A stretch of 64,000 nucleotides of DNA from Escherichia coli 042 (GCF_000027125.1 NC_017626.1); one strand, 5' to 3'; shown: positions 27,125 to 56,535, counted from the stretch's first letter. Made by a program: numbers and translations. The notes: generated from the letters alone by a model not told the origin.

Positions 27125-27200
27125 GCCCGGATAGCTCAGTCGGTAGAGCAGGGGATTGAAAATCCCCGTGTCCTTGGTTCGATTCCGAGTCCGGGCACCA
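27125..27200 (+). tRNA. pheV: tRNA-Phe (anticodon GAA)
   Basis: GCCCGGATAGCTCAGTCGGTAGAGCAGGGGATTGAAAATCCCCGTGTCCTTGGTTCGATTCCGAGTCCGGGCACCA; 76 nt, CCA end, GAA anticodon in loop. Confidence 0.95.
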
Positions 27201-27397: not shown

Positions 27398-28663
27398 ATG
27401 GCACTGACTGACGCAAAAATCCGGGCAGCAAAGCCTACTGACAAGGCTTATAAACTCACTGACGGGGCTGGCATGTTCCTGCTGGTACATCCTAATGGTT
27501 CCCGTTACTGGCGTCTCCGTTATCGTATTCTGGGTAAGGAGAAGACTCTGGCACTTGGTGTGTATCCAGAAGTTTCTCTCTCCGAAGCTCGTACAAAACG
27601 GGATGAGGCCCGAAAACTGATTTCAGAGGGGATTGACCCTTGCGAACAGAAAAGAGTTAAAAAAGTAGTCCCTGATTTACAGCTCTCTTTTGAACATATT
27701 GCACGACGCTGGCATGCCAGTAATAAACAATGGGCACAATCACACAGCGATAAAGTACTCAAAAGCCTCGAGACACACGTTTTCCCCTTTATCGGCAACC
27801 GGGATATCACAACACTCAATACCCCGGACCTGCTTATCCCTGTTCGTGCTGCAGAAGCAAAACAAATTTATGAAATCGCCAGTCGTCTGCAGCAAAGAAT
27901 ATCTGCTGTAATGCGTTACGCCGTACAGTCTGGCATCATCAGATATAACCCGGCTCTGGATATGGCTGGTGCATTGACCACGGTAAAACGCCAGCATCGC
28001 CCCGCTCTGAATCTTTCACGCCTGCCTGAACTTCTGTCGCGTATTGACGGTTATAAAGGCCAGCCTGTCACCCGGCTTGCCGTTATGCTGAATTTACTGG
28101 TTTTTATTCGTTCCAGTGAACTCAGATATGCCCGCTGGTCTGAAATTGATATTGACAATGCCATGTGGACTATTCCAGCCGAACGCGAACCTCTGCCTGG
28201 CGTAAAATTCTCACACCGGGGCTCCAAGATGCGGACACCACATCTTGTGCCACTCAGTAAACAGGCTGTAGCCATACTGACAGAACTTCAGACATGGGCA
28301 GGTGAAAATGGTCTGATATTTACGGGTGCACATGACCCGCGTAAACCAATCAGTGAAAATACTGTAAATAAAGCCCTGAGGGTGATGGGGTATGACACAA
28401 CCCGGGATGTCTGTGGTCATGGGTTCCGGGCGATGGCATGTAGTGCGTTAATAGAATCAGGTTTGTGGTCCCGCGATGCTGTTGAACGTCAGATGAGCCA
28501 TCAGGAACGTAACGGTGTACGTGCTGCTTACATTCATAAAGCAGAACATCTGGAAGAACGCCGCTTGATGCTACAATGGTGGGCCGATTTTCTGGATGCA
28601 AACAGAGAAAGATTTATCAGTCCATTTGAATATGCAAAGATTAATAATCCATTAAAACAGTAA
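27398..28663 (+). CDS. P4-type tyrosine integrase (site-specific recombinase)
   Basis: 421-aa ORF starting 200 bp after tRNA-Phe; N-terminal MALTDAKIRAAKPTDKAYKLTDGAGMFLLVHPNGSRYWRLRYR and C-terminal HGFRAMACSA...RAAYIH catalytic region typical of P4-like integrases. Confidence 0.9.
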   Translation: MALTDAKIRAAKPTDKAYKLTDGAGMFLLVHPNGSRYWRLRYRILGKEKTLALGVYPEVSLSEARTKRDEARKLISEGIDPCEQKRVKKVVPDLQLSFEHIARRWHASNKQWAQSHSDKVLKSLETHVFPFIGNRDITTLNTPDLLIPVRAAEAKQIYEIASRLQQRISAVMRYAVQSGIIRYNPALDMAGALTTVKRQHRPALNLSRLPELLSRIDGYKGQPVTRLAVMLNLLVFIRSSELRYARWSEIDIDNAMWTIPAEREPLPGVKFSHRGSKMRTPHLVPLSKQAVAILTELQTWAGENGLIFTGAHDPRKPISENTVNKALRVMGYDTTRDVCGHGFRAMACSALIESGLWSRDAVERQMSHQERNGVRAAYIHKAEHLEERRLMLQWWADFLDANRERFISPFEYAKINNPLKQ

Positions 28664-28981: not shown

Positions 28982-30481
28982 TTACCTGTGGTCCGGAAGA
29001 ATAAGCGGCTGCGGTTTCAGACTGTCTTCCTGTACATACCTCTCTCCGTTAAAAACCATAATGCGTTCATTATCTTCGTCTGTCAGTGGATTGAATGGCG
29101 GTATATTTTCGGTACGAATACCGGTCAGCCACTGAAAAATACCTGTGAAATGACGGGCACTGATTTTTCTGCTGAGGGACTGATGAGAGGTTATATCACT
29201 GGCGGTAATAATCAGGGGCACGCTGTAGCCTCCCTGCACATGACCATCATGATGAACAGGATTAGCACTGTCGCTGACCGACAGCCCATGGTCAGAAAAG
29301 TAAAGCATGGCGAAATGACGTGAGTGTCGGCGAAGGATACCATCAAGCTGACCAAGAAAGTTATCCAGTTTACTGATGCTGGCAAGATAACAGGCAATTT
29401 TTCGGGAATACTGCTCCAGGTAATTATTCTGCCAGGAGTGAAGCCGATCACACGGGTTCGGATGAGACCCCATCATGTGCAGGAAAATCACCTTCGGAGT
29501 GGATGTATCTGCCAGCGCACGTTCTGTTTCCTGTAACAACAACATGTCATCCGTTTTACGGGAAGCAAAGCTGCCTTTCTTGAGGAAAACAGTATGGTCC
29601 GCATCAGAAGCAATAACAGAGATGCGTGTGTCATGCTCTCCCAGTTTTCCCTGATTGGATATCCACCATGTGCTGTATCCTGCTTTTGCTGCCAGCGCCA
29701 CCACGTTGTTGCCGGAATCAGGGTTCTGCTCATAGTCATAAATCAGTGTCCGGCTCAGGGAAGGCACGGTGCTGGCTGCTGCCGATGTATAACCGTCAAT
29801 AAATAAACCGGGAGCCGTATTCAGCCATGGTGTGGTTGGCTCGGGATAACCATATACCGACATATAATCCCTGCGGACACTCTCACCAGTAACAATAACA
29901 ATCGTGTCATATAATGGTGCTCCCGGCAGGATTTTCCAGCTGTCAGCACCGTGCCGACTCAGTTGTTCATAACGCTGCATTTCACGCAATGTGTCAGTTG
30001 TCCCCACAACTGTTCCTTTAACCATCCGTAACGGCCAGCTGTTTACAGAGCATAATACGAATAACAACAGAGCCATCGCGTTACGTTGACCACGGTGGTG
30101 TGTCCGCCAGAAAATAACCATGAACACCAGAATCGCGGCACTGACCAGAAAATGATAAACAGGAATCATCCCGGTAAACTCCGCAGCCTCATCCGCCGTG
30201 GTCTGCAACAACGCGACAATAAAACTGTTGTTGATTTTTCCGTACGTCATACCGACAGGTGCATACAGTGCACAACAGAACAGAAATAACAGAGCTGTAA
30301 TGGATGTAAGGGTATTTCTGTGTGCAAGAATCAGAAGGAGAAACAGCAGCAACACATTCCCGGTGGCATTCTTCTCAGTGTATCCGCATGCGGCAGTGGT
30401 TATTACACACATGCCCGGGAAGAATAAAAACAATAAAATCCGGGATATATTGTCCGTATAAAACAGCTTTCTGATATTCAT
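28982..30481 (-). CDS. membrane phosphoethanolamine transferase / sulfatase-family protein (EptA/YhbX-like)
   Basis: 499 aa; N-terminal multi-TM region followed by alkaline-phosphatase-superfamily motifs (TGESVRRDY, HMMGSHP, SDHG). Confidence 0.6.
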   Translation of the reverse strand: MNIRKLFYTDNISRILLFLFFPGMCVITTAACGYTEKNATGNVLLLFLLLILAHRNTLTSITALLFLFCCALYAPVGMTYGKINNSFIVALLQTTADEAAEFTGMIPVYHFLVSAAILVFMVIFWRTHHRGQRNAMALLLFVLCSVNSWPLRMVKGTVVGTTDTLREMQRYEQLSRHGADSWKILPGAPLYDTIVIVTGESVRRDYMSVYGYPEPTTPWLNTAPGLFIDGYTSAAASTVPSLSRTLIYDYEQNPDSGNNVVALAAKAGYSTWWISNQGKLGEHDTRISVIASDADHTVFLKKGSFASRKTDDMLLLQETERALADTSTPKVIFLHMMGSHPNPCDRLHSWQNNYLEQYSRKIACYLASISKLDNFLGQLDGILRRHSRHFAMLYFSDHGLSVSDSANPVHHDGHVQGGYSVPLIITASDITSHQSLSRKISARHFTGIFQWLTGIRTENIPPFNPLTDEDNERIMVFNGERYVQEDSLKPQPLILPDHR

Positions 30482-30632
30482 CGGAGTATATCGACAACAT
30501 TATTGTGAAGAGAATAAAAATCAGAAGTCTCCTGTGAAACAGATAACAGACAACCCTGCAGTATAATTACTGCAGGGAGTCTTCGTTTAATTACAGAAGA
30601 TGGGTAATTATTATCTTTCAGGAGCAGTTTTG

Positions 30633-31373
30633 TCAGAAGTTATAAGTCACACCAAGCATGATGTCATGACTTTTAACATCAACTTCTGATTTATATTTAT
30701 CGCCCCACTCGTCCTTGTAACTCACACTGCTGTCACCTGCATCAAGATAGCGATAGCTGAGGTCCAGAGCGATATCCGGGGTTACGTCATAGCGGACACC
30801 CGCGCCAAAGCTCCATGCGAAGTTGTCAGCAGAGCCTGAACGTGACAACGATTCGCGACCACTGCTTCCGTACCCATAATCCCAGGTACTGATACCGGTT
30901 GTTTTCTGGTGAATTCTGGCGTAGCCAATCCCTGCAGATACCCATGGTGTGAATGCACTGTCATTCCGGAAGTCATAGTACGCATTCAGCATCAGTGTGT
31001 TGACTGACACCTCATTCTTCAGGTCATCACGCCAGTAACCGCCTGACCAGCTGTCTTTATCTACGTTATACTTCGAATCAGCTTTTCCACGAGCGTAAAA
31101 CTCCAGTTCCGTACGAACCGGAATACTGAACTGCGGGTAAAAATCATAACCGGCCGCGATACCGCCACTGAATACCGTATCATGGCCATCACCGCCTTTA
31201 TATTTTGATGTTTCCTCTCCATCACCCGACAGGAAACGCTGGTCTGCAAGTGACATAACAGAAGCACCTGCTTTACCGGTCACATAAAAGCCTGTTTTGC
31301 TCTCATCAGCCAGAGCCTGGGTCGAAAACATGCCTGCCATGGCAAGCGCTGAAACCGCAATAACCTTATTCAT
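30633..31373 (-). CDS. outer-membrane beta-barrel protein (possibly opacity/Tia-Hek-like adhesin family)
   Basis: Signal peptide MNKVIAVSALAMAGMFSTQALA, alternating aromatic/hydrophilic strands, C-terminal ...LGVTYNF beta-barrel signature; subfamily uncertain. Confidence 0.55.
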   Translation of the reverse strand: MNKVIAVSALAMAGMFSTQALADESKTGFYVTGKAGASVMSLADQRFLSGDGEETSKYKGGDGHDTVFSGGIAAGYDFYPQFSIPVRTELEFYARGKADSKYNVDKDSWSGGYWRDDLKNEVSVNTLMLNAYYDFRNDSAFTPWVSAGIGYARIHQKTTGISTWDYGYGSSGRESLSRSGSADNFAWSFGAGVRYDVTPDIALDLSYRYLDAGDSSVSYKDEWGDKYKSEVDVKSHDIMLGVTYNF

Positions 31374-31597
31374 TTCAATCATCTCCGCTATCACTTTCCC
31401 CGAACGATAAATGGGGTTGCTCATTCTAAAACCATGCAAAAGATAGGGTAAAAGGAATGTTTTCGATCGAATCGATCGATAAAATCGATCGTACCCGATA
31501 AAGTTTTCTTATCGTACCCATAAAAATGGTAAGGGCTGGTTTAAGAGGTAATCGCAGCGGCATGGAAGTATTAAGACCAAAACAGCACGAGATAAAG

Positions 31598-31781
31598 CGG
31601 CTGAACGTCAGATGAGCCACATGGAACGTAATTCATTAAGGGCGGCTTATATCCATAAAACAGAACACCTGGAATAGCGTCGGTTGATGCTACAGTGGTG
31701 GGGGGATTTTCTGGATACAAACTCGAAAGAAAATACCAGCCCCTTTGAGTATACGAAGATTAACAATCCATTAAAATATTA
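31598..31781 (+). pseudogene. integrase 3' end remnant (duplicated C-terminal fragment of P4-type integrase)
   Basis: Nucleotide stretch ctgaacgtcagatgagcca...ttgatgctacagtggtgg...attttctggata...aatccattaaaa is clearly homologous to 28481..28663 (end of the intact integrase) but carries an in-frame TAG; followed by a similar ccgggca-loop-tgcccgg hairpin. Confidence 0.7.
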
Positions 31782-32010
31782 AGCACTCCGGGCAATCTGC
31801 CCGGAGTGCTTTAGCTGGCATAACGGGCTACTGATCTCCTCTGGTTACAGATAACGACTTCAGCCCTCTGAAAGAGAAAAGCGGAAGCTCAGGAAGGTTG
31901 TGATTTGCTTTTAACCTTTTTAATTTAGAAGTATTATTTTGAGATTAATCCACTTCCCATCGTCATCCTTTTTGGTGTGCGTGAAAAGCTATTTTTAAGG
32001 TTACTGCCTC

Positions 32011-34320
32011 ATGGAGTTATGGATATTTATAGTAGCTATTTATTTGATTTATATTCTTTTTTTCAAAAAGAAGAAAACTAAGTCCGCGGGCTCTTATACT
32101 TCCGCTCCTGTGAAAGCACCACCTAAAGAATGGCTTGCTAACAACAAAAAAAATCAGTCTGTAATGCAAAACGAGGACAGCGAAGATGACAATCTGGCTA
32201 CGTTTACACTAAGTGGCGGGCGGAATGTCGAATACAGCATAACAGCCACTCAACGCCAGAATTTCTCAAAAACTACCGGTGCTTTGGCTCGTTGGATTTT
32301 TCCGGGAGAGATGATCACAGTCAGTGGGATAGAGGTTACCGGCGGTCACTTCTATCTTGGGCAGCGTATGAAACCTGCCGGGCATAACTCAGGCGGTTAT
32401 TATGATGGCAATAACGAGGCATCGCTAGTTGACGACACGCTTAAAATATACCCCACACCTTACATTTACGAAGATAGTTCATTAGGGTATTGGCCCAGTT
32501 TTTCCTCACTTTCACCTGAAGCTCGTGGTGCGTACCTGAGTTGGCTTGCCAGCGACAGATGCGACACTTCCTGCCCAATTGGTTACGTTTTCATTTATCT
32601 GTATGGTCTGGAAAGAAGGGCGCTTGTTGACAGCAGGGACAACAATATATCCGACGATGAGTTCTATTCTCTTTTCAAAGAGATCTGCCGTCTCAGATCG
32701 GTTTTCAATGAAAACCGATCTTTCCGGAATTACTCATCCCAGTTACTTGAAGCGATGTCCATTCTTCGTCCGAACGAAAATCTTGCAGCAGCTCTCAACG
32801 ATGATTCGGAGTTCAGCAATAGCATGCAGTTCAGGTTAATCCTGGCAAAGACTGTTGATACAGGAGCCCCGGTTCCAGCGGATCTGGCTCTGACGTGGGT
32901 GACAAACCATGCTGAATACTCATTACGAACCCCCGCCCGCCGCTGTGCGAAAGAATTTGCTGCACTATTTAAACGGCGTTACACCCTTAAATACGGTGAA
33001 GGGATGGTAGTGAAGCCGAATAAAGCGCGTCTGCGTTTAGATTACACGCCTGCAAGTCCCAGTTTGCGAGGTATTCGGCTTCCTGTTCCCGACTTGCCTG
33101 ATCCAGGTGCATTGAAAGGCCCTGTTCAGAAGCTTATGGCCATTGCCGATATATGCACAGGTGAACTGGATGCTTACAGTCGTTACCTTGGTAGAAAAGG
33201 TACTTCAGCAAATGATACCGCTGCAATTTTGTTGCTGCCTTCAGAAATCGTTAACGAAAGCGCAGAAAAAATATTAAGTACATTCAAACACTGGGCTGAT
33301 GACGCAATCCGCAGTAAGGGTGGGATAGTTTCAGTTGCTGACTACTGGTCACATATGAATGCCACCTGTCCGGCGAAGATCAATAAAAAAGAGGCCGACT
33401 TAATGCAAGCCTTTGCACAGAAAATGGGATACTGTCTGGCTCCTGACCCCTATCACCACCACGTAAAGGCAGATGTCGATGGTGTACTTGTTTTATTCCC
33501 TGCTGGTGAAAGAGGACGTTTCTCACCTTCTCCTGAATTTATCACAGCTGTATTGACGCTCCGATTAGGTTCGGTAGTCGCCTTGATTGACAATTCTCTC
33601 GATCAAGCCGAACAGAAAGTGCTTGAGAATGCCATCAACAACAATGCCAGCTTCAGCGATGATGAAAAGCGCTCTCTGCACGCATATTTAACGTGGCAGC
33701 TTCATACTCCGGCGAATATGACGGGAATGAAAAGCCGGATTGAATTACTCGGTGCAGCGGAAAAATCAGCTGTGGGTAAGGTTATCGTTAGTGTCGCTTG
33801 CTCTGACGGCAGAATTACGCCTGCCGAAATCAAACAGCTTGAGAAGATTTATACAAGCCTGGGACTGGATCCCTCATCCGTATCAAGCAATATCCATCAG
33901 CATTCCGCAACTGAAACTGCTCTCGTTTCATCTGTACCAGCTAATCAGTCGACGGCAGGGTTTACGCTGGATGCCAACGTACTTGCCCGCCACGAATCTG
34001 CCACTGATGATGTTCGTAAATTACTGAACTCAATTTTCACTGAAGAAGAACCAGAACAACCAGAAAGCGCTCCAGCCTCATTAACCGGGGAAGGGGGACT
34101 TGACTCCGCTCATAGCCAACTTTATCGCAGGTTGCTGGAGAAAGAACAATGGTCCAGAAAAGAGGCGACAGAGTTGTGTAGTAACTGGAACCTGATGCTC
34201 GGCGGTGCGCTTGAGGTGATTAACGATTGGTCCTATGCGGTGGTTGATGCACCAGTGCTGGAAGATGCTGATGATCACATTTGGATTGACCTGGAAATAG
34301 CCAAAGAATTAGAGGGTTAG
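32011..34320 (+). CDS. TerB-domain membrane-anchored protein (Shango SngA-like)
   Basis: 769 aa; N-terminal TM helix (MELWIFIVAIYLIYILFF), region with GYVFIYLYGLERR and a later ...VSVACSDGRITPAEIKQLEKIYTSLGLD block that I recognise as TerB-N / TerB-like; first gene of a tightly packed three-gene operon. Confidence 0.6.
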   Translation: MELWIFIVAIYLIYILFFKKKKTKSAGSYTSAPVKAPPKEWLANNKKNQSVMQNEDSEDDNLATFTLSGGRNVEYSITATQRQNFSKTTGALARWIFPGEMITVSGIEVTGGHFYLGQRMKPAGHNSGGYYDGNNEASLVDDTLKIYPTPYIYEDSSLGYWPSFSSLSPEARGAYLSWLASDRCDTSCPIGYVFIYLYGLERRALVDSRDNNISDDEFYSLFKEICRLRSVFNENRSFRNYSSQLLEAMSILRPNENLAAALNDDSEFSNSMQFRLILAKTVDTGAPVPADLALTWVTNHAEYSLRTPARRCAKEFAALFKRRYTLKYGEGMVVKPNKARLRLDYTPASPSLRGIRLPVPDLPDPGALKGPVQKLMAIADICTGELDAYSRYLGRKGTSANDTAAILLLPSEIVNESAEKILSTFKHWADDAIRSKGGIVSVADYWSHMNATCPAKINKKEADLMQAFAQKMGYCLAPDPYHHHVKADVDGVLVLFPAGERGRFSPSPEFITAVLTLRLGSVVALIDNSLDQAEQKVLENAINNNASFSDDEKRSLHAYLTWQLHTPANMTGMKSRIELLGAAEKSAVGKVIVSVACSDGRITPAEIKQLEKIYTSLGLDPSSVSSNIHQHSATETALVSSVPANQSTAGFTLDANVLARHESATDDVRKLLNSIFTEEEPEQPESAPASLTGEGGLDSAHSQLYRRLLEKEQWSRKEATELCSNWNLMLGGALEVINDWSYAVVDAPVLEDADDHIWIDLEIAKELEG

Positions 34321-34323
34321 TGA

Positions 34324-35640
34324 ATGTCTGTAACACGTATAAGAGTGAAAGAGCGCGACGCTATCATTCAGTCACTTAAGTCGGGAGTAACGCCAAGAAT
34401 AGGTATTCAGCATATCCAGGTTGGCCGCGTGAATGAGATAACCGCCCTCCATCAGGATATTGAACGGATTGCTGATGGCGGGGCAAGCTTCAGACTTATC
34501 ATTGGTGAGTACGGTTCCGGGAAAACATTCTTTTTAAGTGTTGTACGGTCTATTGCGTTAGAGAAGAAGCTGGTCACGGTCAGTGCAGACCTTTCTCCCG
34601 ACAGACGTATCCACTCATCGGGAGGTCAGGCTCGTAATCTCTACTCAGAGCTTATGAAAAATATGTCCACCAGAAACAAACCAGATGGCAATGCATTACT
34701 TAGCGTTGTGGAAAGGTTTGTTACTGAGGCAAGGAAGGAAGCTGATGCGAACGGCTCCCTGGTCTCATCCGTTATTCATAAACGCCTTGCTGCTTTGTCA
34801 GATATGGTGGGAGGATATGACTTTGCGAAGGTCATTGACGCATTCTGGCGCGGGCATGAGCAGGATAACGAAACCTTAAAATCCAATGCTATTCGCTGGT
34901 TGCGGGGCGAGTACACCACAAAAACTGATGCCCGTAATGATCTTGACGTCCGAACGATTATCTCAGACGCCTCGTTCTATGATTCTTTGAAGTTGATGAG
35001 CCTTTTTGTCCGTCAGGCAGGCTATGCCGGACTTTTAGTTAGCCTCGACGAGATGGTGAACCTCTTCAAGTTGAATAATACGCAAGCGAGAACGGCCAAC
35101 TACGAACAAATTTTGCGGATTCTGAATGACTGCCTGCAAGGCTCCGCCGAAAATATTGGTTTTATCCTCGGGGGGACGCCAGAATTTCTTTTCGATCCAC
35201 GTAAGGGGCTCTACAGCTATGAAGCGCTCCAGTCGCGTCTGGCAGAAAACCGATTCGCACAGAAAGCTGGCGTGATTGACTACTCGTCCCCCACGCTGCA
35301 TCTTGCCAGCCTCACTCCTGAGGAACTGTATATTTTACTGAAAAACCTTCGTCATGTTTATGCTGGTGGAGATCCCGTAAATTATCTGGTGCCAGATGAT
35401 GCTCTGACCGGGTTTCTGCATCACTGCAGCAAAACCATCGGAGATGCTTACTTTCGAACTCCCCGCAATACCATAAAAGGTTTTCTGGATATGCTGGCTG
35501 TGCTGGAACAAAACAGAACGATGAACTGGCAACCCCTCATTGAGGGGGTGGCGATTGAAGAAGACAAGCTCAGCGATATGGATGATGCCATTGTGGAGGA
35601 AAGTGATGACGATGATGGCCTGGCGAATTTCAGATTATGA
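34324..35640 (+). CDS. P-loop ATPase (Shango SngB-like)
   Basis: 438 aa; Walker A GEYGSGKTF, Walker B LLVSLDEM; starts 4 nt after upstream stop and overlaps downstream start. Confidence 0.65.
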   Translation: MSVTRIRVKERDAIIQSLKSGVTPRIGIQHIQVGRVNEITALHQDIERIADGGASFRLIIGEYGSGKTFFLSVVRSIALEKKLVTVSADLSPDRRIHSSGGQARNLYSELMKNMSTRNKPDGNALLSVVERFVTEARKEADANGSLVSSVIHKRLAALSDMVGGYDFAKVIDAFWRGHEQDNETLKSNAIRWLRGEYTTKTDARNDLDVRTIISDASFYDSLKLMSLFVRQAGYAGLLVSLDEMVNLFKLNNTQARTANYEQILRILNDCLQGSAENIGFILGGTPEFLFDPRKGLYSYEALQSRLAENRFAQKAGVIDYSSPTLHLASLTPEELYILLKNLRHVYAGGDPVNYLVPDDALTGFLHHCSKTIGDAYFRTPRNTIKGFLDMLAVLEQNRTMNWQPLIEGVAIEEDKLSDMDDAIVEESDDDDGLANFRL

Positions 35641-37835
35641 GTAGTGCCTACAATAGTCTTGATCCCCGTGTCCGTAAGTGGGTTTATAAGCAGGGCTGGT
35701 CATCCTTAAGGCCCTTGCAGGAAAGCTCTATTCCGGCAATTTTAGCCCGTGATCGTGATGTACTAATTAGTGCAGGTACAGCTGCGGGTAAAACAGAGGC
35801 TTTCTTTCTTCCTGCCTGTTCAGCGATTGCAGATCTCACTGGTGGATTTGGCATTATCTATATCAGTCCATTGAAGGCATTAATTAACGATCAACACCGT
35901 CGTCTTGAGAGTCTTGGTGAAGCCCTGGAAATGCAAGTGACGCCCTGGCACGGGGATGTACCACAAAGCAAAAAGAAGAAAGCACGGACAACCCCTTCTG
36001 GCATCTTACTTATCACACCTGAATCACTTGAGTCTTTGCTCATAAACTCATTGGGTTGGCTCAAACAGGCGTTTTCTTCTGTGGCATACATTGTTATTGA
36101 TGAGTTCCATGCTTTTATTGGCTCAGAGCGTGGTATACAGCTGCTTTCTCTGCTTAACAGAATTGACCATGTGCTGGGACGCCAGTTGAATCCAGTTCCC
36201 CGTGTCGCGTTGAGTGCCACACTGGGAGAGCTGGAAAAAGTACCAGAACTATTGCGCCCGGATAAGAGATTACCTTGTGAAACGGTAACAGACAGTAATA
36301 GCAAAGCCACAATACAGGTTCAGGTTAAAGGTTATCTTGAGCGGGTGCCCGAAAAAGGAAAAGAGCTCCAGAGCTCTGCTGAACAGCTCGTCTGCGCGGA
36401 TATTTTCAGGCTCTGCCGTGGCGATTCCCACCTAGTCTTTGCTAACAGTCGAAAGCGTACTGAAAGCATAGCGGCAACACTGAGCGACATGTGTGAAGCA
36501 AATGTCGTTCCTAATGAATTCTTTCCTCATCATGGTTCCCTTGCAAGGGAGTTGCGTGAGGCGCTTGAAGCCCGACTGCAGAAAGGGAATTTGCCCACAA
36601 CCGCTGTTTGTACAATGACTCTGGAGCTGGGTATTGATATTGGTAAGGTGCAGTCTGTCATACAAGTGACACCTCCGCATTCTGTTTCCAGTCTGCGTCA
36701 ACGCATGGGACGTTCAGGGCGGCGCGATTCCCCATCGGTGCTGAGAATGTTAATTACTGAACCTGAACTTACCGCAACCAGCAGCATTGTGGATCATTTA
36801 CGGCTGCAGTTGGTTCAGGCGATGGCAATGATCAGGTTGATGATCTCTAAGCGCTGGTTCGAGCCTGCAGATATCCGGCAGAAACATTACTCCACACTAC
36901 TACACCAGATCTTGGCTATTACTGCGCAATGGGGAGGTGTTCGTGCCGATCAGCTCTGGTCACAACTTTGCCAGACAGGTCCGTTCCGGAATGTGGATAT
37001 AAATGACTTCAAAAGTCTGCTTAAACATATGGGGACATGTGGCCTGCTCACTCAACTAACCAGCGGTGAAATAGTTGTCGGGGCTGAGGGGGAGAAACTG
37101 ACTAATCACTACACGTTTTATACCGTATTCAATACACCTGAGGAGTTTCGCATTGTAACGGGAAACCGAACTCTTGGCACAGTGCCTGTAGACTCCCCAC
37201 TTTTGCCGGAGCAGCACATCATCTTCGGCGGACGGCGCTGGAAAGTGACAGAGATCGAGGTTGAAAAAAAGGTTATCTATGTTGAGACGACTAAAGGCGG
37301 TCAGCCGCCACTATTCAGTGGTAGCGGGATGTCTGTTCATGATGTTGTTCGCCAGGAAATGCTCACTATCTACAGGGAAAATGATTACCGTATCGCGGTA
37401 GGCAACAAGAGAGTCGATTATGCTGATGCCGCAGCCAGAAGCCTCTTCGCGGAAGGAAGTGACAACTTCCAACGCTACAATCTACAAAATGACTGTTTTA
37501 TTGCCAGTGGTCAGAACTGCTACGTGATCCCGTGGATGGGGGATAAAATTGTCAATACAATTACGTCCCTGCTTATACGTTGTGGCTTTAAAGCCAGTTC
37601 ATTTGCAGGTGTGATAGAGGTAGAGGACTCAGGCGTTGCCTCTGTCCAGCGTGCACTTAAGAAAATGCTATTGTCGGGGCTACCTTCAGAGTTTGAGCTT
37701 GCTGCAGTTGTTCCCGACAAGTATCTGGATAAATATGACGAGTATTTACCAGAGACTTTGCTTGCTAAAGGGTATGGGGCACAGGCGTATGATATAGAAG
37801 GAACGTGCATCTGGCTGCAGAAACACCTTCAGTAG
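35637..37835 (+). CDS. DEAD/DEAH-box (Lhr-like SF2) helicase (Shango SngC-like)
   Basis: 732 aa; motif I AGTAAGKTEAF, motif II VIDEFH, motif III SAT, motif VI MGRSGRR; ATGA start/stop overlap with upstream ATPase. Confidence 0.7.
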   Translation: MSSAYNSLDPRVRKWVYKQGWSSLRPLQESSIPAILARDRDVLISAGTAAGKTEAFFLPACSAIADLTGGFGIIYISPLKALINDQHRRLESLGEALEMQVTPWHGDVPQSKKKKARTTPSGILLITPESLESLLINSLGWLKQAFSSVAYIVIDEFHAFIGSERGIQLLSLLNRIDHVLGRQLNPVPRVALSATLGELEKVPELLRPDKRLPCETVTDSNSKATIQVQVKGYLERVPEKGKELQSSAEQLVCADIFRLCRGDSHLVFANSRKRTESIAATLSDMCEANVVPNEFFPHHGSLARELREALEARLQKGNLPTTAVCTMTLELGIDIGKVQSVIQVTPPHSVSSLRQRMGRSGRRDSPSVLRMLITEPELTATSSIVDHLRLQLVQAMAMIRLMISKRWFEPADIRQKHYSTLLHQILAITAQWGGVRADQLWSQLCQTGPFRNVDINDFKSLLKHMGTCGLLTQLTSGEIVVGAEGEKLTNHYTFYTVFNTPEEFRIVTGNRTLGTVPVDSPLLPEQHIIFGGRRWKVTEIEVEKKVIYVETTKGGQPPLFSGSGMSVHDVVRQEMLTIYRENDYRIAVGNKRVDYADAAARSLFAEGSDNFQRYNLQNDCFIASGQNCYVIPWMGDKIVNTITSLLIRCGFKASSFAGVIEVEDSGVASVQRALKKMLLSGLPSEFELAAVVPDKYLDKYDEYLPETLLAKGYGAQAYDIEGTCIWLQKHLQ

Positions 37836-37851
37836 ACTGGATATGTAGTCA

Positions 37852-37884
37852 GGGTATAAATAAGTATTTATACCCTTATTTTTT
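37852..37884. terminator. hairpin terminator after helicase gene
   Basis: gggtataaata-agt-atttataccc followed by ttatttttt. Confidence 0.5.
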
Positions 37885-38270
37885 ACTTACCTGTGGACTT
37901 ACTTGGCTTTAATCCCGGAGTATTGCCAGGAGTATCTTTATTATCGCGTCGGCGTTGATCCGGTTTTCCTGTTGACTTAGCAATTGGTTTTGGACCTGGT
38001 TTTAGACCCATGATAGTTATCCTTCGAGATGTAAGAGGAATGCCCTCAACATTGGTATATTCTATACTGAGAAATTTTTCAATGGGAATGTTCAACGGCC
38101 GAATGATTAACTCGATATTGTGAGCAATGTCTTTTTTTGGCACAGAGCGAACCGTTAGATTGCGCGTATTTTTATGGAAGGAGATCATCCAATAACGGTT
38201 ATTCACCGATCTCCTTTATGGTAATACGAACCTGTTTTTTTAATATATAGAAAAATTACTCCGACATGTT

Positions 38271-38935: not shown

Positions 38936-39244
38936 TCAACAGACCGGTGTACCTTTTCTGAATACCTCCCCGGACGGACTGGCAATCCCCATTCGCCTCA
39001 GCGTGGCATCTGCAGCTTTCGCCACTTCGCTGATATCCAGCTTTTCAGGTAGCGGCGGGGACGATATCTGCGCCAGGCAATAATTCCTGCGCAACAACAA
39101 CCACTCCCGTTGTGCTTCTGTACATTCAACATTTCCCATAACAAAAAGCCAGCGGGCGGAAGCTCTGCGCCAGCAACCCGCAGCCTCCAGCTTCTGTGCA
39201 ACCATGTCTTCCACGACTTCCGGGGTACTCTTTTTCCTGCTCAA
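38936..39244 (-). CDS. hypothetical protein (third gene of IbrAB-like operon)
   Basis: 102-aa ORF 39 nt downstream of ParB-like gene, same strand. Confidence 0.35.
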   Translation of the reverse strand: MSRKKSTPEVVEDMVAQKLEAAGCWRRASARWLFVMGNVECTEAQREWLLLRRNYCLAQISSPPLPEKLDISEVAKAADATLRRMGIASPSGEVFRKGTPVC

Positions 39245-39283: not shown

Positions 39284-39922
39284 TCAGCGAACCGTCCATG
39301 CCGGACTGAAATCCTCTTCCAGAAACAGCTCCGTCAGCCCGCTAATCTGTTTCAACCTGAGAACTTCATCCTGGTCCATACCCAGCTCCGTACCAATACG
39401 TTCATCCGTCCAGCCCAGCCGCGACAGGTCCCTGACAATATCAGACATTGAAGTTATCTGGTGCTTCCCCCTGGCCCGGTTATGTCTAATGGTTGCAGCA
39501 ATACGTGAGGCCTGTCCCTTTCTTTCCGGATTAATACAGGTCACTGGCAACCAGCCCTTCAGGCGTTTTCCCGTACCTGCTTCCCTGCCCAGTAATTGAC
39601 GATGAAAACCATCCACGACCAGATAATGCTCCTTCTCTTCCGAGACAACCACAGGCTGCGTGAACCCATCCTGCTCCAGTGAATGTTTCAGCAGTTTCTT
39701 CTCACCCGGCGCCATGACATTGGGGTTATAATCGTTGGCCACCACCTCATCTGCTTTCACCCACAGCACACAGTCCACAGGCTCCTGTGCAAATGGACTG
39801 ACCTCATGAAGCACCCTGCGCAGATGATTCAGGGCCTGTATGGCCTCTTCTTCTGGTCGTTCCTGGCTGAAGTACTGACGAATCATGTTGCTCAGTATCT
39901 CCGGTGTCACAGAATCCCCCAT
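39284..39922 (-). CDS. ibrB: ParB/Srx-like nuclease-domain protein (IbrB-like)
   Basis: 212 aa; ParB N-terminal-type motif region VVVDGFHRQLLGREAG...IRHNRARGKHQ; start overlaps upstream gene by 16 nt. Confidence 0.6.
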   Translation of the reverse strand: MGDSVTPEILSNMIRQYFSQERPEEEAIQALNHLRRVLHEVSPFAQEPVDCVLWVKADEVVANDYNPNVMAPGEKKLLKHSLEQDGFTQPVVVSEEKEHYLVVDGFHRQLLGREAGTGKRLKGWLPVTCINPERKGQASRIAATIRHNRARGKHQITSMSDIVRDLSRLGWTDERIGTELGMDQDEVLRLKQISGLTELFLEEDFSPAWTVR

Positions 39923-41139
39923 TCCTTCCTCCTTTCTTTCATACGCTGCAGATAACGTTCATAGTGCCGGGGTTTGTTCGGACTGAAGGAGAGGGTACGG
40001 CACCAGAAATCATTCTTTATGAGAGTCTTACAGATACGTCGCCAGGACGGAATATCCCGGCTCCCCAAGTCATTCTCCTGTTCATCCGGGATGTCATCCG
40101 GGAAGCCCCGCGTCTGATACCAGCGCAGATAGACAGCTATCTTGTTGCGGTAATGTTCTGCCGTTCTTTCCGGCATCACATCCAGCAGAAACATCGCATA
40201 GCTGCGCCAGGTATGATGGGCTGGTTTTGATATGCGCTTACGCAGGGCAAAATAAGCCCCGCTTTCATTGGCATAAAGTGCCCCGCTGGCAGCCCCTGAC
40301 ACCCGCTCACACATCCTGGCCCAGGTTTCCGGCTCCAGAACATGGTAAAGCCACAGTCCCTTACGTTGTTCAGGACCAAAAGGTTCACAGACACGCATGT
40401 TGCGTAACGGTACGCCGGCACGGTACATCAGGTCATACAGGGGATTGTAGATGGCACGGGTTCTGGTGTGATATATCCAGATATCACGAGTTTTCCAGTC
40501 ATACAGCGGATACATGGTGTAGTAAAACCCTTCAGGCGATGCCGTGGTCCAGGGCTTATCATCGGCGTATCTCAGTTTGCGCTGGGATACCAGTCCCATG
40601 AACCGGTTAAGGGACTCATCCGCACGGACACCGGTCAGTACTGCCACACCACATTTATTGTCTGCAAACCAGGAAGAAAATGCCGGAACAAATTCTTCAA
40701 ACGTCATGGCATACCGGTAAAAGGGAAAATACGCCATATCTGTAATGGCCCCCTCCGGTGGCTGGCGAACCCACTTCACACCAGACTCCCAGCATATCCA
40801 CTCCGGCTGAAACTGAGAAACACCGTTTACCGTGGTCAGGGGAAGTGCCACCCAGTAAAAGGTTTCCGTCACATCATGGTACATTTCCCGCATCTTCTGA
40901 ATATGTTCAATGGTGCACTGGTACTGAGCCTCCCAGTCAATGAACAGTACAGAGAAACGACGTTTTTTCCTGCGGGCCACATCAGCCAAAAGATGGAAAA
41001 GCACGGTGGAATCTTTACCACCGGAAAAAGAGAGACAAACTGATGGAAATGTTTCAAAAATCCACTCAATACGAGCAATTGCTGCACGCAGAACATTCTC
41101 TCCAGTAAGGACTTTCTCCGTTAAAAAATTATCATTCAT
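39907..41139 (-). CDS. ibrA: PAPS-reductase-like (PP-loop ATP pyrophosphatase) protein with C-terminal extension (IbrA-like)
   Basis: 410 aa; PP-loop SFSGGKDSTVLFHL near N-terminus, long C-terminal domain; gene pair architecture matches IbrA/IbrB (YbdN/YbdM-like) as I recall it. Confidence 0.65.
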   Translation of the reverse strand: MNDNFLTEKVLTGENVLRAAIARIEWIFETFPSVCLSFSGGKDSTVLFHLLADVARRKKRRFSVLFIDWEAQYQCTIEHIQKMREMYHDVTETFYWVALPLTTVNGVSQFQPEWICWESGVKWVRQPPEGAITDMAYFPFYRYAMTFEEFVPAFSSWFADNKCGVAVLTGVRADESLNRFMGLVSQRKLRYADDKPWTTASPEGFYYTMYPLYDWKTRDIWIYHTRTRAIYNPLYDLMYRAGVPLRNMRVCEPFGPEQRKGLWLYHVLEPETWARMCERVSGAASGALYANESGAYFALRKRISKPAHHTWRSYAMFLLDVMPERTAEHYRNKIAVYLRWYQTRGFPDDIPDEQENDLGSRDIPSWRRICKTLIKNDFWCRTLSFSPNKPRHYERYLQRMKERRKEWGIL

Positions 41140-41987: not shown

Positions 41988-42040
41988 ACTATCTCACCGA
42001 ATAAATTGCAACACTCCCCTTACCCCACATCCTAAAGGCT

Positions 42041-42964
42041 TTATATAAAACAGTAAAAGTGAATCAGCTTAACAAATGCATCTTTCATTTGTTTTTGCTG
42101 CTGCTCGCTTCCATTCTGGTTGCGGACTTCACCATAGTGACACAACTGTTCTTCTGCCAGGATATGCCGGTTAAAAGCCTGCATGATGCCAGACACCTCC
42201 GTTTTCAGCTCACTGACCGTCATGTATTTTCCCCGCTGTTCATCCGGACGGTTCAGGCGCTCAGCCAACAGCTGTAAGCGGGTCATGCCTTCGTTCCAGC
42301 CAGTCATCGCCTCTTCCGGGAGCGCACGACTCCTTGCACTCTTCTGCCAGTTATCCACCATTTCCTGAACACGAGGATTGTCGGGGAAAAGTACCATCAG
42401 TTGCTGCAGCAATTGCACACTGCGTTGCAGGTTGTATGCCGGGGGGAATTCTGTCAGTCGCGTTATCTGCTGACCGGAAAGGGTTATCCACTCTGACGCA
42501 TGATTTAACAGTGTTCTGCTGAGCTGCATCATCTGGTCTGCTGAAAGCACATCCGGTGAGGGTGTCAGCAGCGCCCTGAGTTGCTGCTCCGCCGGTGATG
42601 GCTGTGTCAGAAACTGCCATCCCGGAATGGCCACGCAGACCGCCAGCAATGCCGTACAGACACCTGTAACAAACGTTTTCAGAAACGTGAGCGGGGATTT
42701 TTGAAGGAAGAGTGTGGGCTCTGTTTTTGTTTCAGAAACAACATACACCAGACGGGAGTGCGGCAGGGTCTGATGTTCCTGCACATCCGGAGCTTCAAGC
42801 CTGAGTGCCTGCGCCAGTAGCGTTACCGGAGACGATACTTCCCCCTGCACAGGCTGGTTCTCCAGGCGGGTGATATATCCCTTCACCATGGCTTCCGGTA
42901 AAGCCACTTTACTGCTCTGTTTAAGTTCGTGCCAAGCCTGCGTATTTTCATGGAAGGAGATCAC
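42041..42964 (-). CDS. hypothetical membrane protein (possible C-terminal portion of an ImpA/VasL-like protein)
   Basis: 307 aa with central TM helix (LTFLKTFVTGVCTALLAVCVAIPGW); start overlaps the upstream ImpA-N-like ORF by 17 nt in another frame. Confidence 0.4.
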   Translation of the reverse strand: MISFHENTQAWHELKQSSKVALPEAMVKGYITRLENQPVQGEVSSPVTLLAQALRLEAPDVQEHQTLPHSRLVYVVSETKTEPTLFLQKSPLTFLKTFVTGVCTALLAVCVAIPGWQFLTQPSPAEQQLRALLTPSPDVLSADQMMQLSRTLLNHASEWITLSGQQITRLTEFPPAYNLQRSVQLLQQLMVLFPDNPRVQEMVDNWQKSARSRALPEEAMTGWNEGMTRLQLLAERLNRPDEQRGKYMTVSELKTEVSGIMQAFNRHILAEEQLCHYGEVRNQNGSEQQQKQMKDAFVKLIHFYCFI

Positions 42965-43388
42965 TCAGTGTCTTCAGGAATGTTTCGGTCTGATACAGCA
43001 GGGGCAGGTTGTCACGGTTATCCGGAGGCATGGCCCGGAGCGTTTTTTGCAGACGGTTGAACAGACCGGTAATAATTTCCAGCCGGGAGTGTGTATTCAG
43101 CGGCCACATCACTGACCAGTGATGCCGGGTCAGCGCAGCAATCAGAGCCAGCCCTTCATTCAGACCACTTAACCCTGTTGTATGCATCCGGGCAATGGTG
43201 TACCAGGATGCCGTCTGTAATTCCACGCCATTGTGTTCATACAGACGCAGGCAGAGCGTTTCCACGTAACGCCAGTCCACATCAGGGCGTGCCGGGTGGG
43301 TCAGTTTGCTGATTTCATCGCGCAGGGCAGCATAATCCGGTAATGACCGGGGGTCACCACCGGTTTTCAGTTTCACTTCAGAAGTCAT
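42948..43388 (-). CDS. ImpA-N-domain-like protein (TssA/VasL N-terminal-like)
   Basis: 146 aa; GGDPRSLPDYAALRDEISKL...DVDWRYVETLCLRLY...ASWYTIA...GLSGLNEGLALIAAL...W pattern resembles the ImpA N-terminal domain of T6SS TssA/VasL proteins (from memory). Confidence 0.4.
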   Translation of the reverse strand: MTSEVKLKTGGDPRSLPDYAALRDEISKLTHPARPDVDWRYVETLCLRLYEHNGVELQTASWYTIARMHTTGLSGLNEGLALIAALTRHHWSVMWPLNTHSRLEIITGLFNRLQKTLRAMPPDNRDNLPLLYQTETFLKTLSDLLP

Positions 43389-43781
43389 CGGCAGATTCAG
43401 TGTTTAGGTATTAAACCATTGTTAATTATAGGGAGAGAGTCAGTGCGATACCGTTACCCAGGAAAGGTATTCCACTGCGCAGATGATTGCCGGTGTCACA
43501 TCCCACCGCCGTTTCAGAACCGGTAACAGCTCATTAAGGTTTCTGATATAACGCTCAGTGAAAACCGGACTGATTACAGGTAATGGTGATATGACAGGTA
43601 TCGTTGCCAATATACACGGCTTCCAGAGGTATGAATCTTACATTCCAGTACCAGGAGTACGGCGAGTGGTTCAGATGAAAAAGACGCATCTGAATATCGT
43701 TAAATAACGGGTTCATGGCGAATTAAATAAACCTGATAATAACAGTATGGGGAAAGTCCGGAATAAAGAAATGGTCCGGTA

Positions 43782-45569
<1,788 letters not shown>

Positions 45570-50285: not shown

Positions 50286-50441
50286 AAAATGTAACTACAA
50301 GTGATAAAAAAACATATATAGATTAAAAAAATTATATCTATAGTAATAACTAAGATATAATGACACCGGAATATAAAAGAACAGATAATTGATAACAAAA
50401 GCAATCACTGTTATTTTTATATCCTTCTTAACCTCCCCCAT
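50286..50441 (-). CDS. candidate microcin M immunity peptide (51 aa, hydrophobic)
   Basis: Hand-translated ORF MGEVKKDIKITVIAFVINYLFFYIPVSLYLSYYYRYNFFNLYMFFYHL between mchF and mcmA with ggag RBS; below the track cutoff; the known immunity protein length was not verified. Confidence 0.35.
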
Positions 50442-50476
50442 CGACAAAACTCCTTACAAAGTTACACCAGTGGATT

Positions 50477-52573
50477 TTAAATAGAAATAATCCTGTCAAC
50501 AGTTCTCAACGTAGTTTCTCTGTGTGCAATAATCACCCGGGTGATATTCATTTTTTTTATGGCAGCATTCACGAAACGTTCACTTTCTGTATCAAGAGAA
50601 CTTGTAGCCTCATCCATAAATAATATTCCAGGTTTCCGGTATAAAGCTCGGGCAATGAATATACGCTGTTTTTGACCGCCGGAAAGACCTTCCCCCAGTT
50701 CACCTATTAACGTTTCATACCCCATTGGCATTTTCATTATCACATCATGAATATGACTTGCTCTGGCACATTCTGTCATCCATTCGTCGTCTGTTTCTTC
50801 TGCAAACCCACAGATATTTTCACGAATTGATCCTGAAAATAGCCGGTCGTCCTGCATAACACAGGCTATCATACGGTGATAATTATTTATTCCAAGTTGA
50901 CGTATATCCGTGCCATTAACCAGTACTTTTCCACTATCTGGTTCAAACAGTCCACATAATACTTTCATTAATGTGGTTTTTCCGGCACCGGAGGCACCAG
51001 TTATAGCCACACTTTCTCCCGGAGCCACAGACAAATTCAGACCACTGAATACCTGTGCTGACTGGCTGTCATACCGGTAGCTTAAATCAGTGGTTTCCAG
51101 TGAAACCGGGCTCATGTCAGCAACGATTTCAATTTCCGGTTTCTTTTCTTCCTTTTCATGTAGTGCAATATCTGCAATGCGCTCATTATGCAGACTCATT
51201 ATTCTCAGTTGAAGAAGAAAACTGGTCAGCGAAGCAACCCGATCCGAAAACTGCCCACGAAAAGAACCAAATGCCACAAACATCCCTATTGTCATCTGAT
51301 TATCGATCACAAGGCTTGCACCCAGCCATAAAATCGCCACCTGATCACAGGCGGCAACAAAAGTATTTATCCCCCCGAAGAGCAAATCCATCTTGGTTAA
51401 CTTAATACCTGAATTGATCGCATCTATTTTCAGGTTAAGCCAGTGTGTTCCCCGGATCCCAGCCATACCTTGGATTTTTACCGTGGCAATACCATACAGG
51501 CTTTCCATAAAATAGGAGCTGGCCCGGGCCCCCCTGACAAGAGTTTCTTCCGATATTTGCCGGTAATAGCCGTATGTCACCAGACGAATAAGAACGTAAA
51601 CCATGGTAAAACCGAGCACTATCCAGGTAAGATATCCTCCATATAACAGCATCATCACAAAAACACCCACAACCATAATACTGTCCATGATTGCCCCAAC
51701 CACACAGGTGGTAAAGGTGGCCCTCAAAGTGTCAAGGGAGCCAAAACGCGACTGGATATCACCTAATTTACGGCGTTCAAAAAACGCCAGCGGCAGTCTG
51801 AGAAGATGGTTAAACAGACCCGACTGCCACTGTATATTGATGAGCGTGCTCATAACCAGTGAGGACCATGCACGCAGCATACTCACCGCGGCCCTGAGCA
51901 ATATAAAGAACATCAGGCCAGCAGAAATAAGCGTCAGCAGCCCTCTGTCCCCCGCCGGAATCGCATGATCCATAACCAGCTGAGTCCCCACCGGCATTAC
52001 CAGATTGATTGCTTCAATTACAACTGACAGACAGAAAATTTTCGCCAGTGTTCTTTTAATACCGTAAATACTGTTAATCAGTGAACGGAGACTTATGCGG
52101 ATCTGCTGGGTTTCCGCCAGGAATTCACTTCCAGGCCAGACCTCAAGTGCAATGCCCGTAAAATACCGGCTCATTTCCTCCCGACCGAGATATCTTCTGC
52201 CTCTGGCCGGATCATGCAGTACATAACGGTTACGCTTTACGCTGACCAGCACGACAAAGTGACTGAAATCCCAGTGGAGAATACACGGCATTTTGAGGGC
52301 ACCAAGTTCATCCAGCTCCAGTGAAAGAGCCCGGGTGACCATCCCCAGCTGCTCCGCTATTCCATTGATTCCTGCAAGGTTTGCTCCACGGGCCGAGAGA
52401 TTAAACTTCCGGCGAAGAGATATCAGGTCAATATTCTTACCAAAATGACCGCATATCATTGCCAGGCAGGCCAGTCCACATTCAGCGGTCTCCGTCTGAT
52501 GAATAACCGGAACACGACGTCGCCAGCGCATATCAAGCTGATTTATAATTTGTCTGAAACTCCCGTTAGTCAT
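50477..52573 (-). CDS. mchF: microcin ABC exporter with N-terminal C39 peptidase domain (CvaB homolog)
   Basis: Track ORF 50477..52591; from [42 protein letters not shown] closely matches CvaB/MchF; Walker [10 protein letters not shown], signature LSGGQ. Confidence 0.85.
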
Positions 52574-53840
52574 TGAGCGGTCCTGTTGCACTGTGTTTCA
52601 TGTCATAGAAAGGAGAAAGCATCCACTGGTAAATACGCCTTTTTTCCAGAAATAGTGTACTTTCGGCTTTCATTCCATTTTCCAGAGGGAGGTATTTTTC
52701 GTCATATCTGATAATCTGCTTTTCAGGCATCGCAATGACTTTATACCAGGGAACAGAGGCGCCCGGCGTATTCTGTGGTGCACCCTTATAGGTCAACATT
52801 TCCTGTGTTGACGCAGGAGTCCTGGATATAGTTTTAACCGTAGCAGAGAACTGCCCAAATTTTTCTGCCGGAAAGGCTTCATAACGAATATTCACTTTGT
52901 CACCAGCCGAAATATAAGGAACAGCATCATTTGGGACCCAGAGAATAAGATAATAGTTTTCAATGTTCTCAGGAATAACCTGCAGAAGGCTGTCTCCGGT
53001 ATTGACCATTTGCCCGACAGTGACACTCAGGGAGTCAACTTTCCCGTCAGTCAACGCCCGGATAATAATTTCGCCCTCCACATCAGTGTTAACCAGTTCT
53101 TTCTGTAACTCGTACCGTTGCAGTTCCATCTGGTAGATACGGTTATCAAAATCTGCAGCCTGAGTCTGAATCTGACTCTCCAGAGTGGTTATCTGCAGGG
53201 CATTCTGTTCGTTCTGTCCGCTCAGGCTGAGAAGATTGTTTTGTTGCTGATAATATAATGCCACCTGGTTAGTTAACTGATCTTTATTAATCAGCCCTTT
53301 TGCCTGATAGTTTCTGTAATTCTCCATATTGTTTTTCATTATTTTTATCCCTTCCTCTGCACGCTGTATAATATCTGATGAGCGACGAAACGCATCTGTG
53401 TATTGCAGACGTTGTTTTTCCAGGGTATCTAACGTTATTTTTTTACTTTCTTCCAGACGGGAAATAATGTTGTCCACACGAACCAGCTGATTTTCTATAT
53501 CCCGCCGATGATTATCAGTGACAATACCACTACGTGTACTTTTACTGATGTCAATCAGATAAACAGGATCCCCTTTTTTTATCAACTGCCCTTCATGAAC
53601 AAATTGCCTGACAACAAATCCCTGTACACCTGAATATATATTGACAGCTCTTGGCCAGGTTGTGACCTCACCACTGACATTAACACGGCGGCTATAGGTA
53701 CCAACAATAATGAACATCAGAAATGCCGTAATAAACACAATGCTTCCCAGCATGATTAACCATAGTGGTATTCCGGGAAGTAATATTGCCCGTCCCTGCC
53801 ACTTCATTTTTCTGTTTTCTAAAGCATCCTGACGAAACAA
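52566..53840 (-). CDS. mchE: microcin secretion membrane fusion protein (CvaA/HlyD family)
   Basis: 424 aa; [40 protein letters not shown] matches CvaA/MchE N-terminus; overlaps mchF start. Confidence 0.85.
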
Positions 53841-53992
53841 AATAGCTCCTCTTACTCACACTTTTCCTGTAATACCTTCACTGATTAACCGAAACGCTAT
53901 AATCAAAGCCAGAAAATACAGAGTCCTGTCAAAATAGTATCAGCGATGCATTTACCCCGTAATTTACAATTATCTCTGTATCTTCAGAGGTA

Positions 53993-54445: not shown

Positions 54446-54470
54446 GATTACTATTTCCCTTATATATTTA

Positions 54471-56519: not shown

Positions 56520-56535
56520 ATAAACTCCATCATAT

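Follow-up and report, generated by a model that had tools for sequence, protein, structure and literature searches.

Does the three-gene operon at positions 32,011 to 37,835 of a 64,000-nucleotide stretch of Escherichia coli 042 DNA (GCF_000027125.1, NC_017626.1; the whole stretch is referred to here as the window) encode the characterised anti-phage defence system Shango or a divergent variant built around a TerB-domain protein, and how might its products act? A sequence-only reading of this DNA had pointed to Shango and left the choice between the two open. The top-scoring defence profiles, together with the lengths and identities of the three proteins relative to a validated system from E. 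coli KTE113, place the operon within characterised Shango. Judging from its sequence, we consider it to be an intact sngABC operon and a near allele of the KTE113 system, with a probability of about 97%. The locus is not new as a system: Shango has already been named, validated in the same species, covered by the PADLOC and DefenseFinder models and documented in E. coli islands. What the locus gains is a clean annotation, in which the generic RefSeq labels of the three genes ('TerB N-terminal domain-containing protein', 'ATP-binding protein' and 'DEAD/DEAH box helicase') give way to an intact Shango system carried by a mobile cassette.

An intact sngABC operon

Three coupled plus-strand genes had been read from the sequence, and their coordinates, the protein lengths and the ATG starts all proved exact:

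32011-34320, plus strand: sngA, 769 amino acids, ATG start; TerB_N/TerB/TerB_C protein, predicted to be membrane-tethered
34324-35640, plus strand: sngB, 438 amino acids, ATG start; BrxD-like ATPase of the ORC/Cdc6 AAA+ type, ending in an acidic tail and a conserved terminal peptide
35637-37835, plus strand: sngC, 732 amino acids, ATG start; Lhr-core-type superfamily 2 (DExH) helicase

The genes are adjacent and co-directional in the order A-B-C, the single-operon arrangement that characterises Shango. The first junction reads TAG-TGA-ATG and leaves a gap of 3 nucleotides, where 4 had initially been counted; at the second, the ATGA start/stop overlap of 4 nucleotides is present as described.

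In PADLOC, the best profile for each protein was that of its Shango namesake, with E-values of 8.6e-100 for SngA (residues 41-768), 3.8e-186 for SngB (residues 1-438, against profile positions 1-439 of 439) and 1.2e-277 for SngC (residues 2-729, against profile positions 3-719 of 720). E-values ranging from 1e-100 to 1e-277 put the operon assignment far outside chance. Pfam models for TerB_N (residues 98-309, 5e-48), TerB (519-624, 1e-5) and TerB_C (644-768, 3e-27) all matched SngA, so that an absence of TerB homology, which would have spoken against the Shango reading, is not what this protein displays. The ATPase and helicase calls for the other two proteins were likewise borne out, by BrxC_BrxD in SngB (residues 6-407, 5.9e-150) and by DEAD and Helicase_C in SngC. 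Every motif quoted in the sequence-only reading was recovered, each at a single position: in SngB, the Walker A motif GEYGSGKTF at residue 61 (K67) and the Walker B motif LLVSLDEM at 237 (D242/E243); in SngC, motif I (AGTAAGKT) at 46 (K52), motif II (DEFH) at 155, motif III (SAT) at 193 and motif VI (MGRSGRR) at 357.

A near allele of the validated system

The type system is the Shango construct SG206 from E. coli KTE113, which is marked as validated, measures 6,700 bp, encodes SngA, SngB and SngC of 769, 438 and 732 amino acids, and relied on its native promoter for expression (Millman et al. 2022, Cell Host Microbe; bioRxiv 10.1101/2022.05.11.491447). Over the 399 published residues of each protein to which the comparison is limited, there were 32, 5 and 11 differences, corresponding to identities of ~92% for SngA, 98.7% for SngB and 97% for SngC. 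Together with the identical lengths, these values indicate that the operon is an allele of the type system and not a divergent variant. Anti-phage activity was shown independently for the Shango of Pseudomonas aeruginosa PA14 (Johnson et al. 2023, PMC10250203).

The possibility that the window is the published KTE113 clone itself was rejected. The first and last published upstream stretches are absent from it at up to 3 mismatches, and only the proximal 67 bp are shared, the first 67 bp of the region 31872-32010 being 89.6% identical to the end of the upstream stretch of the clone. The KTE113 upstream context instead matches the island of strain AVS0282 (locus L002) at 95%, which, taken with the 67 shared base pairs, points to a different allele and a different island in the window.

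A mobile cassette and its distribution

The extent of the mobile unit was delimited by a single gapped blastn alignment to the AVS0282 Shango locus (96.7% identity), in which similarity ends at 31872 and 38144:

31872-38144, plus strand: Shango cassette, 6.27 kb, comprising the upstream region, sngA, sngB, sngC, the terminator and ~310 bp of 3' flank
31872-32010, plus strand: upstream region, 139 bp, presumed native promoter and ribosome-binding site, conserved with AVS0282
37851-37876, plus strand: intrinsic-terminator-like hairpin and T-run from a pattern scan, 16 nucleotides past the sngC stop and within the conserved cassette

A simple scan of the upstream region returned no strong sigma-70 consensus, so the position of the promoter is one that we infer. 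The downstream hairpin has an 11-bp stem, a 4-nucleotide loop and the tail TATTTTTTAC, and would close the operon as a terminator. The ~310 bp 3' of sngC (37836-38144) move between islands as part of the cassette; they are overlapped by a minus-strand open reading frame (ORF) of 107 amino acids (37883-38206, 'hypothetical protein') that is not annotated in the other island.

That other island carries the ~97% allele of AVS0282, and its integrase is near-identical to one beside tRNA-Arg in a further E. coli locus (L003). By these comparisons, the cassette is island-borne in two distinct tRNA islands, at tRNA-Phe here and of tRNA-Arg type elsewhere. Shango in tRNA-inserted E. coli islands has been drawn before (PMC11096173, Fig. 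8b).

Copies with 100% identity to the operon occur in E. coli JE86-ST05, JE86-ST02 and BEC1-S17-ESBL-09, and H3 has a near-identical one. Of 5,426 complete E. coli genomes, 442 contain at least 80% of the operon, their alleles grouping at ~99.7-100% and ~97% identity; a system present in ~8% of complete genomes bears on the prediction of phage susceptibility. Another 379 complete genomes hold operon fragments only, such as the final ~790 bp of sngC beside IS3, or ~150 bp in CFT073. Insertion sequence IS1 lies inside sngA in two strains, and in one strain sngB is truncated and sngC frameshifted, with GmrSD and SIR2 genes alongside, decay of Shango being recurrent in E. coli genomes (L003, positions 8000-10606, included).

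Between this allele and that of AVS0282, the ratio of non-synonymous to synonymous substitution rates (dN/dS) was 0.20 for sngA, 0.11 for sngB and 0.12 for sngC, which places each of the genes under purifying selection among the alleles of E. coli. Of the three proteins, SngA varies most in this comparison. Diversifying selection on it was considered and rejected, given its dN/dS of 0.20 and a dN below dS in each 100-codon window where synonymous differences occur (none do in the short final one); for codons 101-200, dN was 0.059 and dS 0.178. Eleven of the 37 SngA differences cluster at residues ~101-150 (window 32311-32460), a region that includes a low-confidence stretch (~121-140) of the structural model described below. 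Across genera, SngC is 85-89% identical where SngA is 75-81% identical, which fits a conserved motor combined with a faster-evolving sensor.

Gene order was surveyed in 80 loci from a species-level genome collection, ranging from Enterobacterales to Desulfovibrio, Chlorobi, Cyanobacteria and Actinobacteria. The order A-B-C holds in 71 of them (67 intact and on one strand, 4 with one gene split), SngC was not seen at the other 9, mostly where the available sequence ends, and no rearranged order occurred among the 80.

Predicted features of the three proteins

SngA starts with a 19-residue segment of strong hydrophobicity, MELWIFIVAIYLIYILFFK (Kyte-Doolittle 2.07), and then KKKK, and an AlphaFold2 (AF2) model built from 104 sequences (predicted local distance difference test score 87.3, predicted template modelling score 0.72) has a helix at residues 2-18. 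Both lend support to the proposal, already made from the sequence, that the first protein is anchored by a transmembrane segment. One further 19-residue window (508-526) reaches the hydrophobicity cutoff and falls within the modelled TerB helical bundle. After the N-terminal helix, the model comprises a disordered stretch (21-90), a small unit rich in beta structure (94-116), the helical body of TerB_N (~169-330), a helix-beta-helix-helix-beta-beta unit (416-497), a helical bundle (508-640), a flexible linker (~640-695) and a second helix-beta-helix-helix-beta-beta unit (699-768) that coincides with TerB_C. It resembles TerB-family structures first and winged-helix folds next.

Among 104 diverse SngA proteins, at least 64 carry an N-terminal hydrophobic helix, several others lying barely below the threshold. 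The family as a whole counts 1,767 representative clusters at E <= 1e-30, with a conserved core at residues ~90-767 and a variable N-terminus. Because these clusters align continuously over ~90-767, an E. coli-specific insertion of ~240 residues, suggested by the 528 positions of the PADLOC profile against the 769 residues of the protein, was rejected. A sequence search of the PDB gave no entry matching SngA, and none matching SngB.

For SngB, an alignment of 70 sequences (the query and 69 from many phyla) showed K67 and D242/E243 to be conserved in at least 97%. The same level of conservation, again at least 97%, was seen for L433, F436 and L438 at the extreme C-terminus (residues ~423-438, window 35590-35637), where a peptide of the form [DE][GDE]L[AT]xFxL follows a variable acidic stretch. 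This terminal peptide looks like a docking motif, a putative role suggested by its conservation.

Both SngB and SngC also match components of type-2 bacteriophage exclusion (BREX, or Pgl), at 1.5e-44 for the BrxD profile and, over the full length, at 3.1e-115 for the BrxHI profile in PADLOC. BrxHI is an Lhr-like helicase with a winged helix-turn-helix, a beta-barrel and an Lhr-type C-terminal domain (PMC12839542), and SngC, BrxHI, DruE and DpdJ belong to one helicase clade (PMC12278908). These matches, along with the Pfam name BrxC_BrxD for the second protein and the RefSeq name 'BREX system ATP-binding domain-containing protein' on a truncated copy, could be taken to mean that the operon is no autonomous system but a type-2 BREX remnant or satellite. 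Against this, the Shango profiles score far above the BREX ones (617 against 151 bits for SngB, 921 against 384 bits for SngC), SngB stays below the NCBIfam BrxD cutoff (146.7 against 350 bits), and none of pglZ, pglX, brxC/pglY and pglW is annotated in the 46-kb region or matched by flanking ORFs in PADLOC. Moreover, a TerB gene is joined to the ATPase-helicase dyad in a three-gene order conserved across phyla, and the three genes alone, once cloned, gave defence (KTE113 and PA14). A BREX remnant is therefore highly improbable, and we regard this reading as effectively refuted.

The Lhr core defines a family of 3'-to-5' single-strand DNA translocases, and Lhr itself is a repair-associated helicase. 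As modelled, SngC has the complete four-domain Lhr-core fold. The assignment of SngC as a ligase-associated Lhr helicase (TIGR04121) was tried and discarded: SngC reaches 238.8 bits where the cutoff is 850 bits, the alignment being confined to residues 11-468, and the RefSeq annotation of the region contains no ATP-dependent DNA ligase gene adjoining the operon.

The Lhr-core fold of SngC and the additional RefSeq label of SngA, 'tellurite resistance TerB family protein', would also suit an operon that is not primarily a phage-defence system but a stress or DNA-repair module (a tellurite- or metal-related TerB protein with an Lhr-like repair helicase) or a barrier to plasmids and conjugation. 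E. coli islands with Shango also carry anti-plasmid systems (PMC11096173), and a membrane-tethered sensor of DNA entry would presumably meet conjugative DNA too. Set against this are the protection of E. coli from phages by a 92-99% identical allele, and likewise by the PA14 homologue, the accessory nature of the operon (8% of complete genomes, on two different tRNA islands), and the ligase-associated Lhr score and missing ligase gene reported above. Nor does the locus correspond to a tellurite-resistance ter operon (terZABCDE), in which TerB would be a protein of its own of ~150 amino acids, TerB being here one module (519-624) of a 769-residue protein and the RefSeq annotation of the neighbourhood containing none of terC, terD, terE, terZ and terA. 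We consider such a primary function improbable, although an added anti-plasmid role may exist beside phage defence.

A possible mechanism

We found no mechanistic study of Shango in the literature to mid-2026. For TerB-containing defence systems, 'membrane surveillance' has been suggested (Millman et al. 2022, bioRxiv 10.1101/2022.05.11.491447). BrxD is an ORC/Cdc6-type AAA+ ATPase that forms a dyad with BrxHI and has been proposed to load or activate the Lhr-like helicase, in a paper that does not mention Shango (PMC12839542). From the homology of SngB to BrxD and of SngC to BrxHI, combined with that proposal, we derive by analogy a tentative model, possible but short of an even chance, in which SngA would be a membrane scaffold or sensor, SngB an ATP-driven loader or switch and SngC a 3'-to-5' motor on incoming or replicating phage nucleic acid.

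In this model, SngA would sit at the inner membrane through its single N-terminal helix and a disordered tether of ~70 residues, and its cytoplasmic body (TerB_N, a winged-helix-like module, the TerB bundle and the winged-helix-like TerB_C) would serve as a sensor or scaffold where foreign DNA enters. SngB would be recruited to it, perhaps via the conserved C-terminal peptide, and would use ATP to load or activate SngC, which would move along phage DNA or replication intermediates, or unwind them, and so block phage replication. Self and non-self would be told apart spatially or structurally, and not by modification. Domain and fold searches of SngA, SngB and SngC recognised no nuclease, methyltransferase or toxin domain, so the block would be non-degradative or dependent on host nucleases.

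A more specific version of the loader model, which we hold to be somewhat more doubtful still, is that Shango is a nuclease-free membrane helicase-loader in which a dyad of BrxD/BrxHI type has been re-targeted by a TerB scaffold; the SngB peptide would dock on the TerB_C winged-helix module of SngA or on SngC, and the motor would be switched on only at the site of foreign-DNA entry. If true, it would cover the whole Shango family and hint at the role of the BrxD/BrxHI pair in BREX, with nothing in it specific to the window.

Alternatively, Shango might act by abortive infection, the SngB/SngC motor working on host DNA or RNA, or SngA perturbing the membrane, such that the cell dies or arrests before phage release. 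Abortive action is seen in many defence systems that contain a helicase or associate with the membrane, the membrane surveillance speculated for TerB systems (Millman et al.) would be compatible with it, and no self-marking enzyme is encoded. The three proteins revealed neither a toxin or pore-forming domain nor a nuclease domain, however, and we judge abortive infection to be unlikely.

Several points weigh against our reading of the operon as a phage-defence system acting as a membrane-tethered helicase-loader. The phage protection is that of the KTE113 allele, whose tested SngA differs by ~8% from the protein encoded here, and in E. coli it was modest, ~10-fold against two phages as summarised in PMC10250203. 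About one-third of SngA homologues have no clear transmembrane helix, so that membrane tethering may not be essential. That a nuclease domain was not detected does not prove its absence. Finally, the analysis shows the domains, folds, homologies and conservation, whereas the membrane location of SngA, the interaction of the three proteins, the substrate of SngC (DNA and not RNA) and the outcome are all inferred.

For work on the mechanism, the analysis offers several hypotheses: a tethered SngA with two winged-helix-like modules, an Lhr-core SngC with no detected nuclease, the BrxD/BrxHI homology and the SngB peptide. What is mildly new lies at the level of the family and not of the window, namely the two winged-helix-like modules of SngA, the C-terminal peptide of SngB and the explicit link between BrxD/BrxHI and Shango.

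The surrounding island

The island that carries the cassette is integrated at tRNA-Phe, downstream of dsbD-dicD, the RefSeq order being dsbD-dicD-tRNA-Phe-integrase:

27125-27200, plus strand: tRNA-Phe gene, integration site of the island (ARAGORN)
27398-28663, plus strand: island tyrosine integrase (NCBIfam integrase domain 1.4e-74; RefSeq 'tyrosine-type recombinase/integrase')
31597-31782, plus strand: remnant of an integrase gene, shortly before the cassette (carried over from locus L001, where RefSeq annotates a pseudogene)

The integrase is followed by a phosphoethanolamine transferase and an outer-membrane protein, the integrase remnant, Shango, the PerC-like, IbrB-like and phosphoadenosine phosphosulfate (PAPS) reductase genes, remnants of a type VI secretion system, a NERD+UvrD helicase and a microcin H47 cluster. 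No second copy of the tRNA-Phe 3' end, which would mark the far end of the island, was found within the window.

Right after the integrase remnant, and ~60 bp upstream of the left end of the cassette, lies a GC-rich palindromic hairpin of 31 nucleotides with a 14-bp stem (31781-31811), probably a terminator or an insertion scar. Remnant and hairpin together are probably the scar of an earlier insertion.

The two minus-strand genes directly after the integrase (28982-31439) encode a CptA-like phosphoethanolamine transferase, which scores 111 bits against a 404-bit cutoff, and then an Adr/OmpW-like outer-membrane protein. The transferase was considered as an mcr gene and rejected, MCR-family models scoring below 32 bits against cutoffs of 1,075-1,250.

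On the other side of Shango, the minus-strand segment 38936-41139 encodes a PerC-like regulator (38936-39244), an IbrB-like ParB/Srx-domain protein (39284-39922) and a PAPS-reductase-family protein of 410 amino acids (39907-41139), whose gene overlaps the IbrB-like gene and which matches BrxP (2.6e-7) and DndC (2.4e-4) weakly. This IbrAB-type pair adjoins Shango and lies outside the mobile cassette.

Other candidate nucleic-acid-targeting genes had been proposed to lie next to the operon. A PADLOC screen of 18 flanking ORFs upheld this for the NERD+UvrD gene, its sole strong match, and for no other neighbour, the PAPS-reductase gene matching weakly. The NERD+UvrD gene (43782-45569, minus strand) encodes a 595-amino-acid protein with a NERD domain and a UvrD-type helicase, which matches PADLOC C3a187 ('NERD+UvrD') over its full length (4.5e-140), has weaker GajB-like profile matches and is named '3'-5' exonuclease' in RefSeq. 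From these matches, it may be a single-gene defence candidate within the Shango island.

Also on the minus strand, at ~42000-43400 and ~50400-57000, are the type VI secretion remnants (VasL- and ImpA-domain fragments) and the microcin H47 cluster, which consists of production, export and immunity genes (mchF, an HlyD-family gene, mchB and mchI). The G+C content falls to 36-43% towards 56-60 kb of the window.

Comparison with known systems

The closest known system is the KTE113 Shango, with which the operon shares species, genes, order, protein lengths and a conserved proximal upstream region. It differs in an SngA that is ~8% divergent and in its island, which is at tRNA-Phe here, whereas the KTE113 upstream region matches the AVS0282 island, of tRNA-Arg type as in L003. 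The PA14 Shango (PA14_RS11735-45) is likened by architecture, having the same TerB-like protein, ATPase and DEAD/DEAH helicase, but belongs to another genus and occupies the chromosomal hotspot cDHS1.

Bunzi (BnzA) and Dionysus (DinB) resemble Shango in having a TerB domain and, presumably, a role in association with the membrane. Their partners are different, however (a hypothetical protein in one case, a pore-forming toxin and a MAEBL/transmembrane protein in the other), and they have neither the ATPase-helicase dyad nor TerB_N and TerB_C in the Shango arrangement.

The BrxD-BrxHI dyad of type-2 BREX provides full-length homologues of SngB and SngC, and both pairs are tightly linked gene dyads. 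Shango, in contrast to type-2 BREX, does without PglZ, the PglX methyltransferase, BrxC and PglW, and its dyad is coupled instead to a TerB_N/TerB/TerB_C protein. For SngC, the nearest known systems also include the Lhr-core helicases (Mycobacterium smegmatis Lhr, PDB 5v9x; MrfA/YprA, 6znp); Lhr is a repair helicase that stands alone or associates with a ligase, whereas SngC is always coupled to SngA and SngB.

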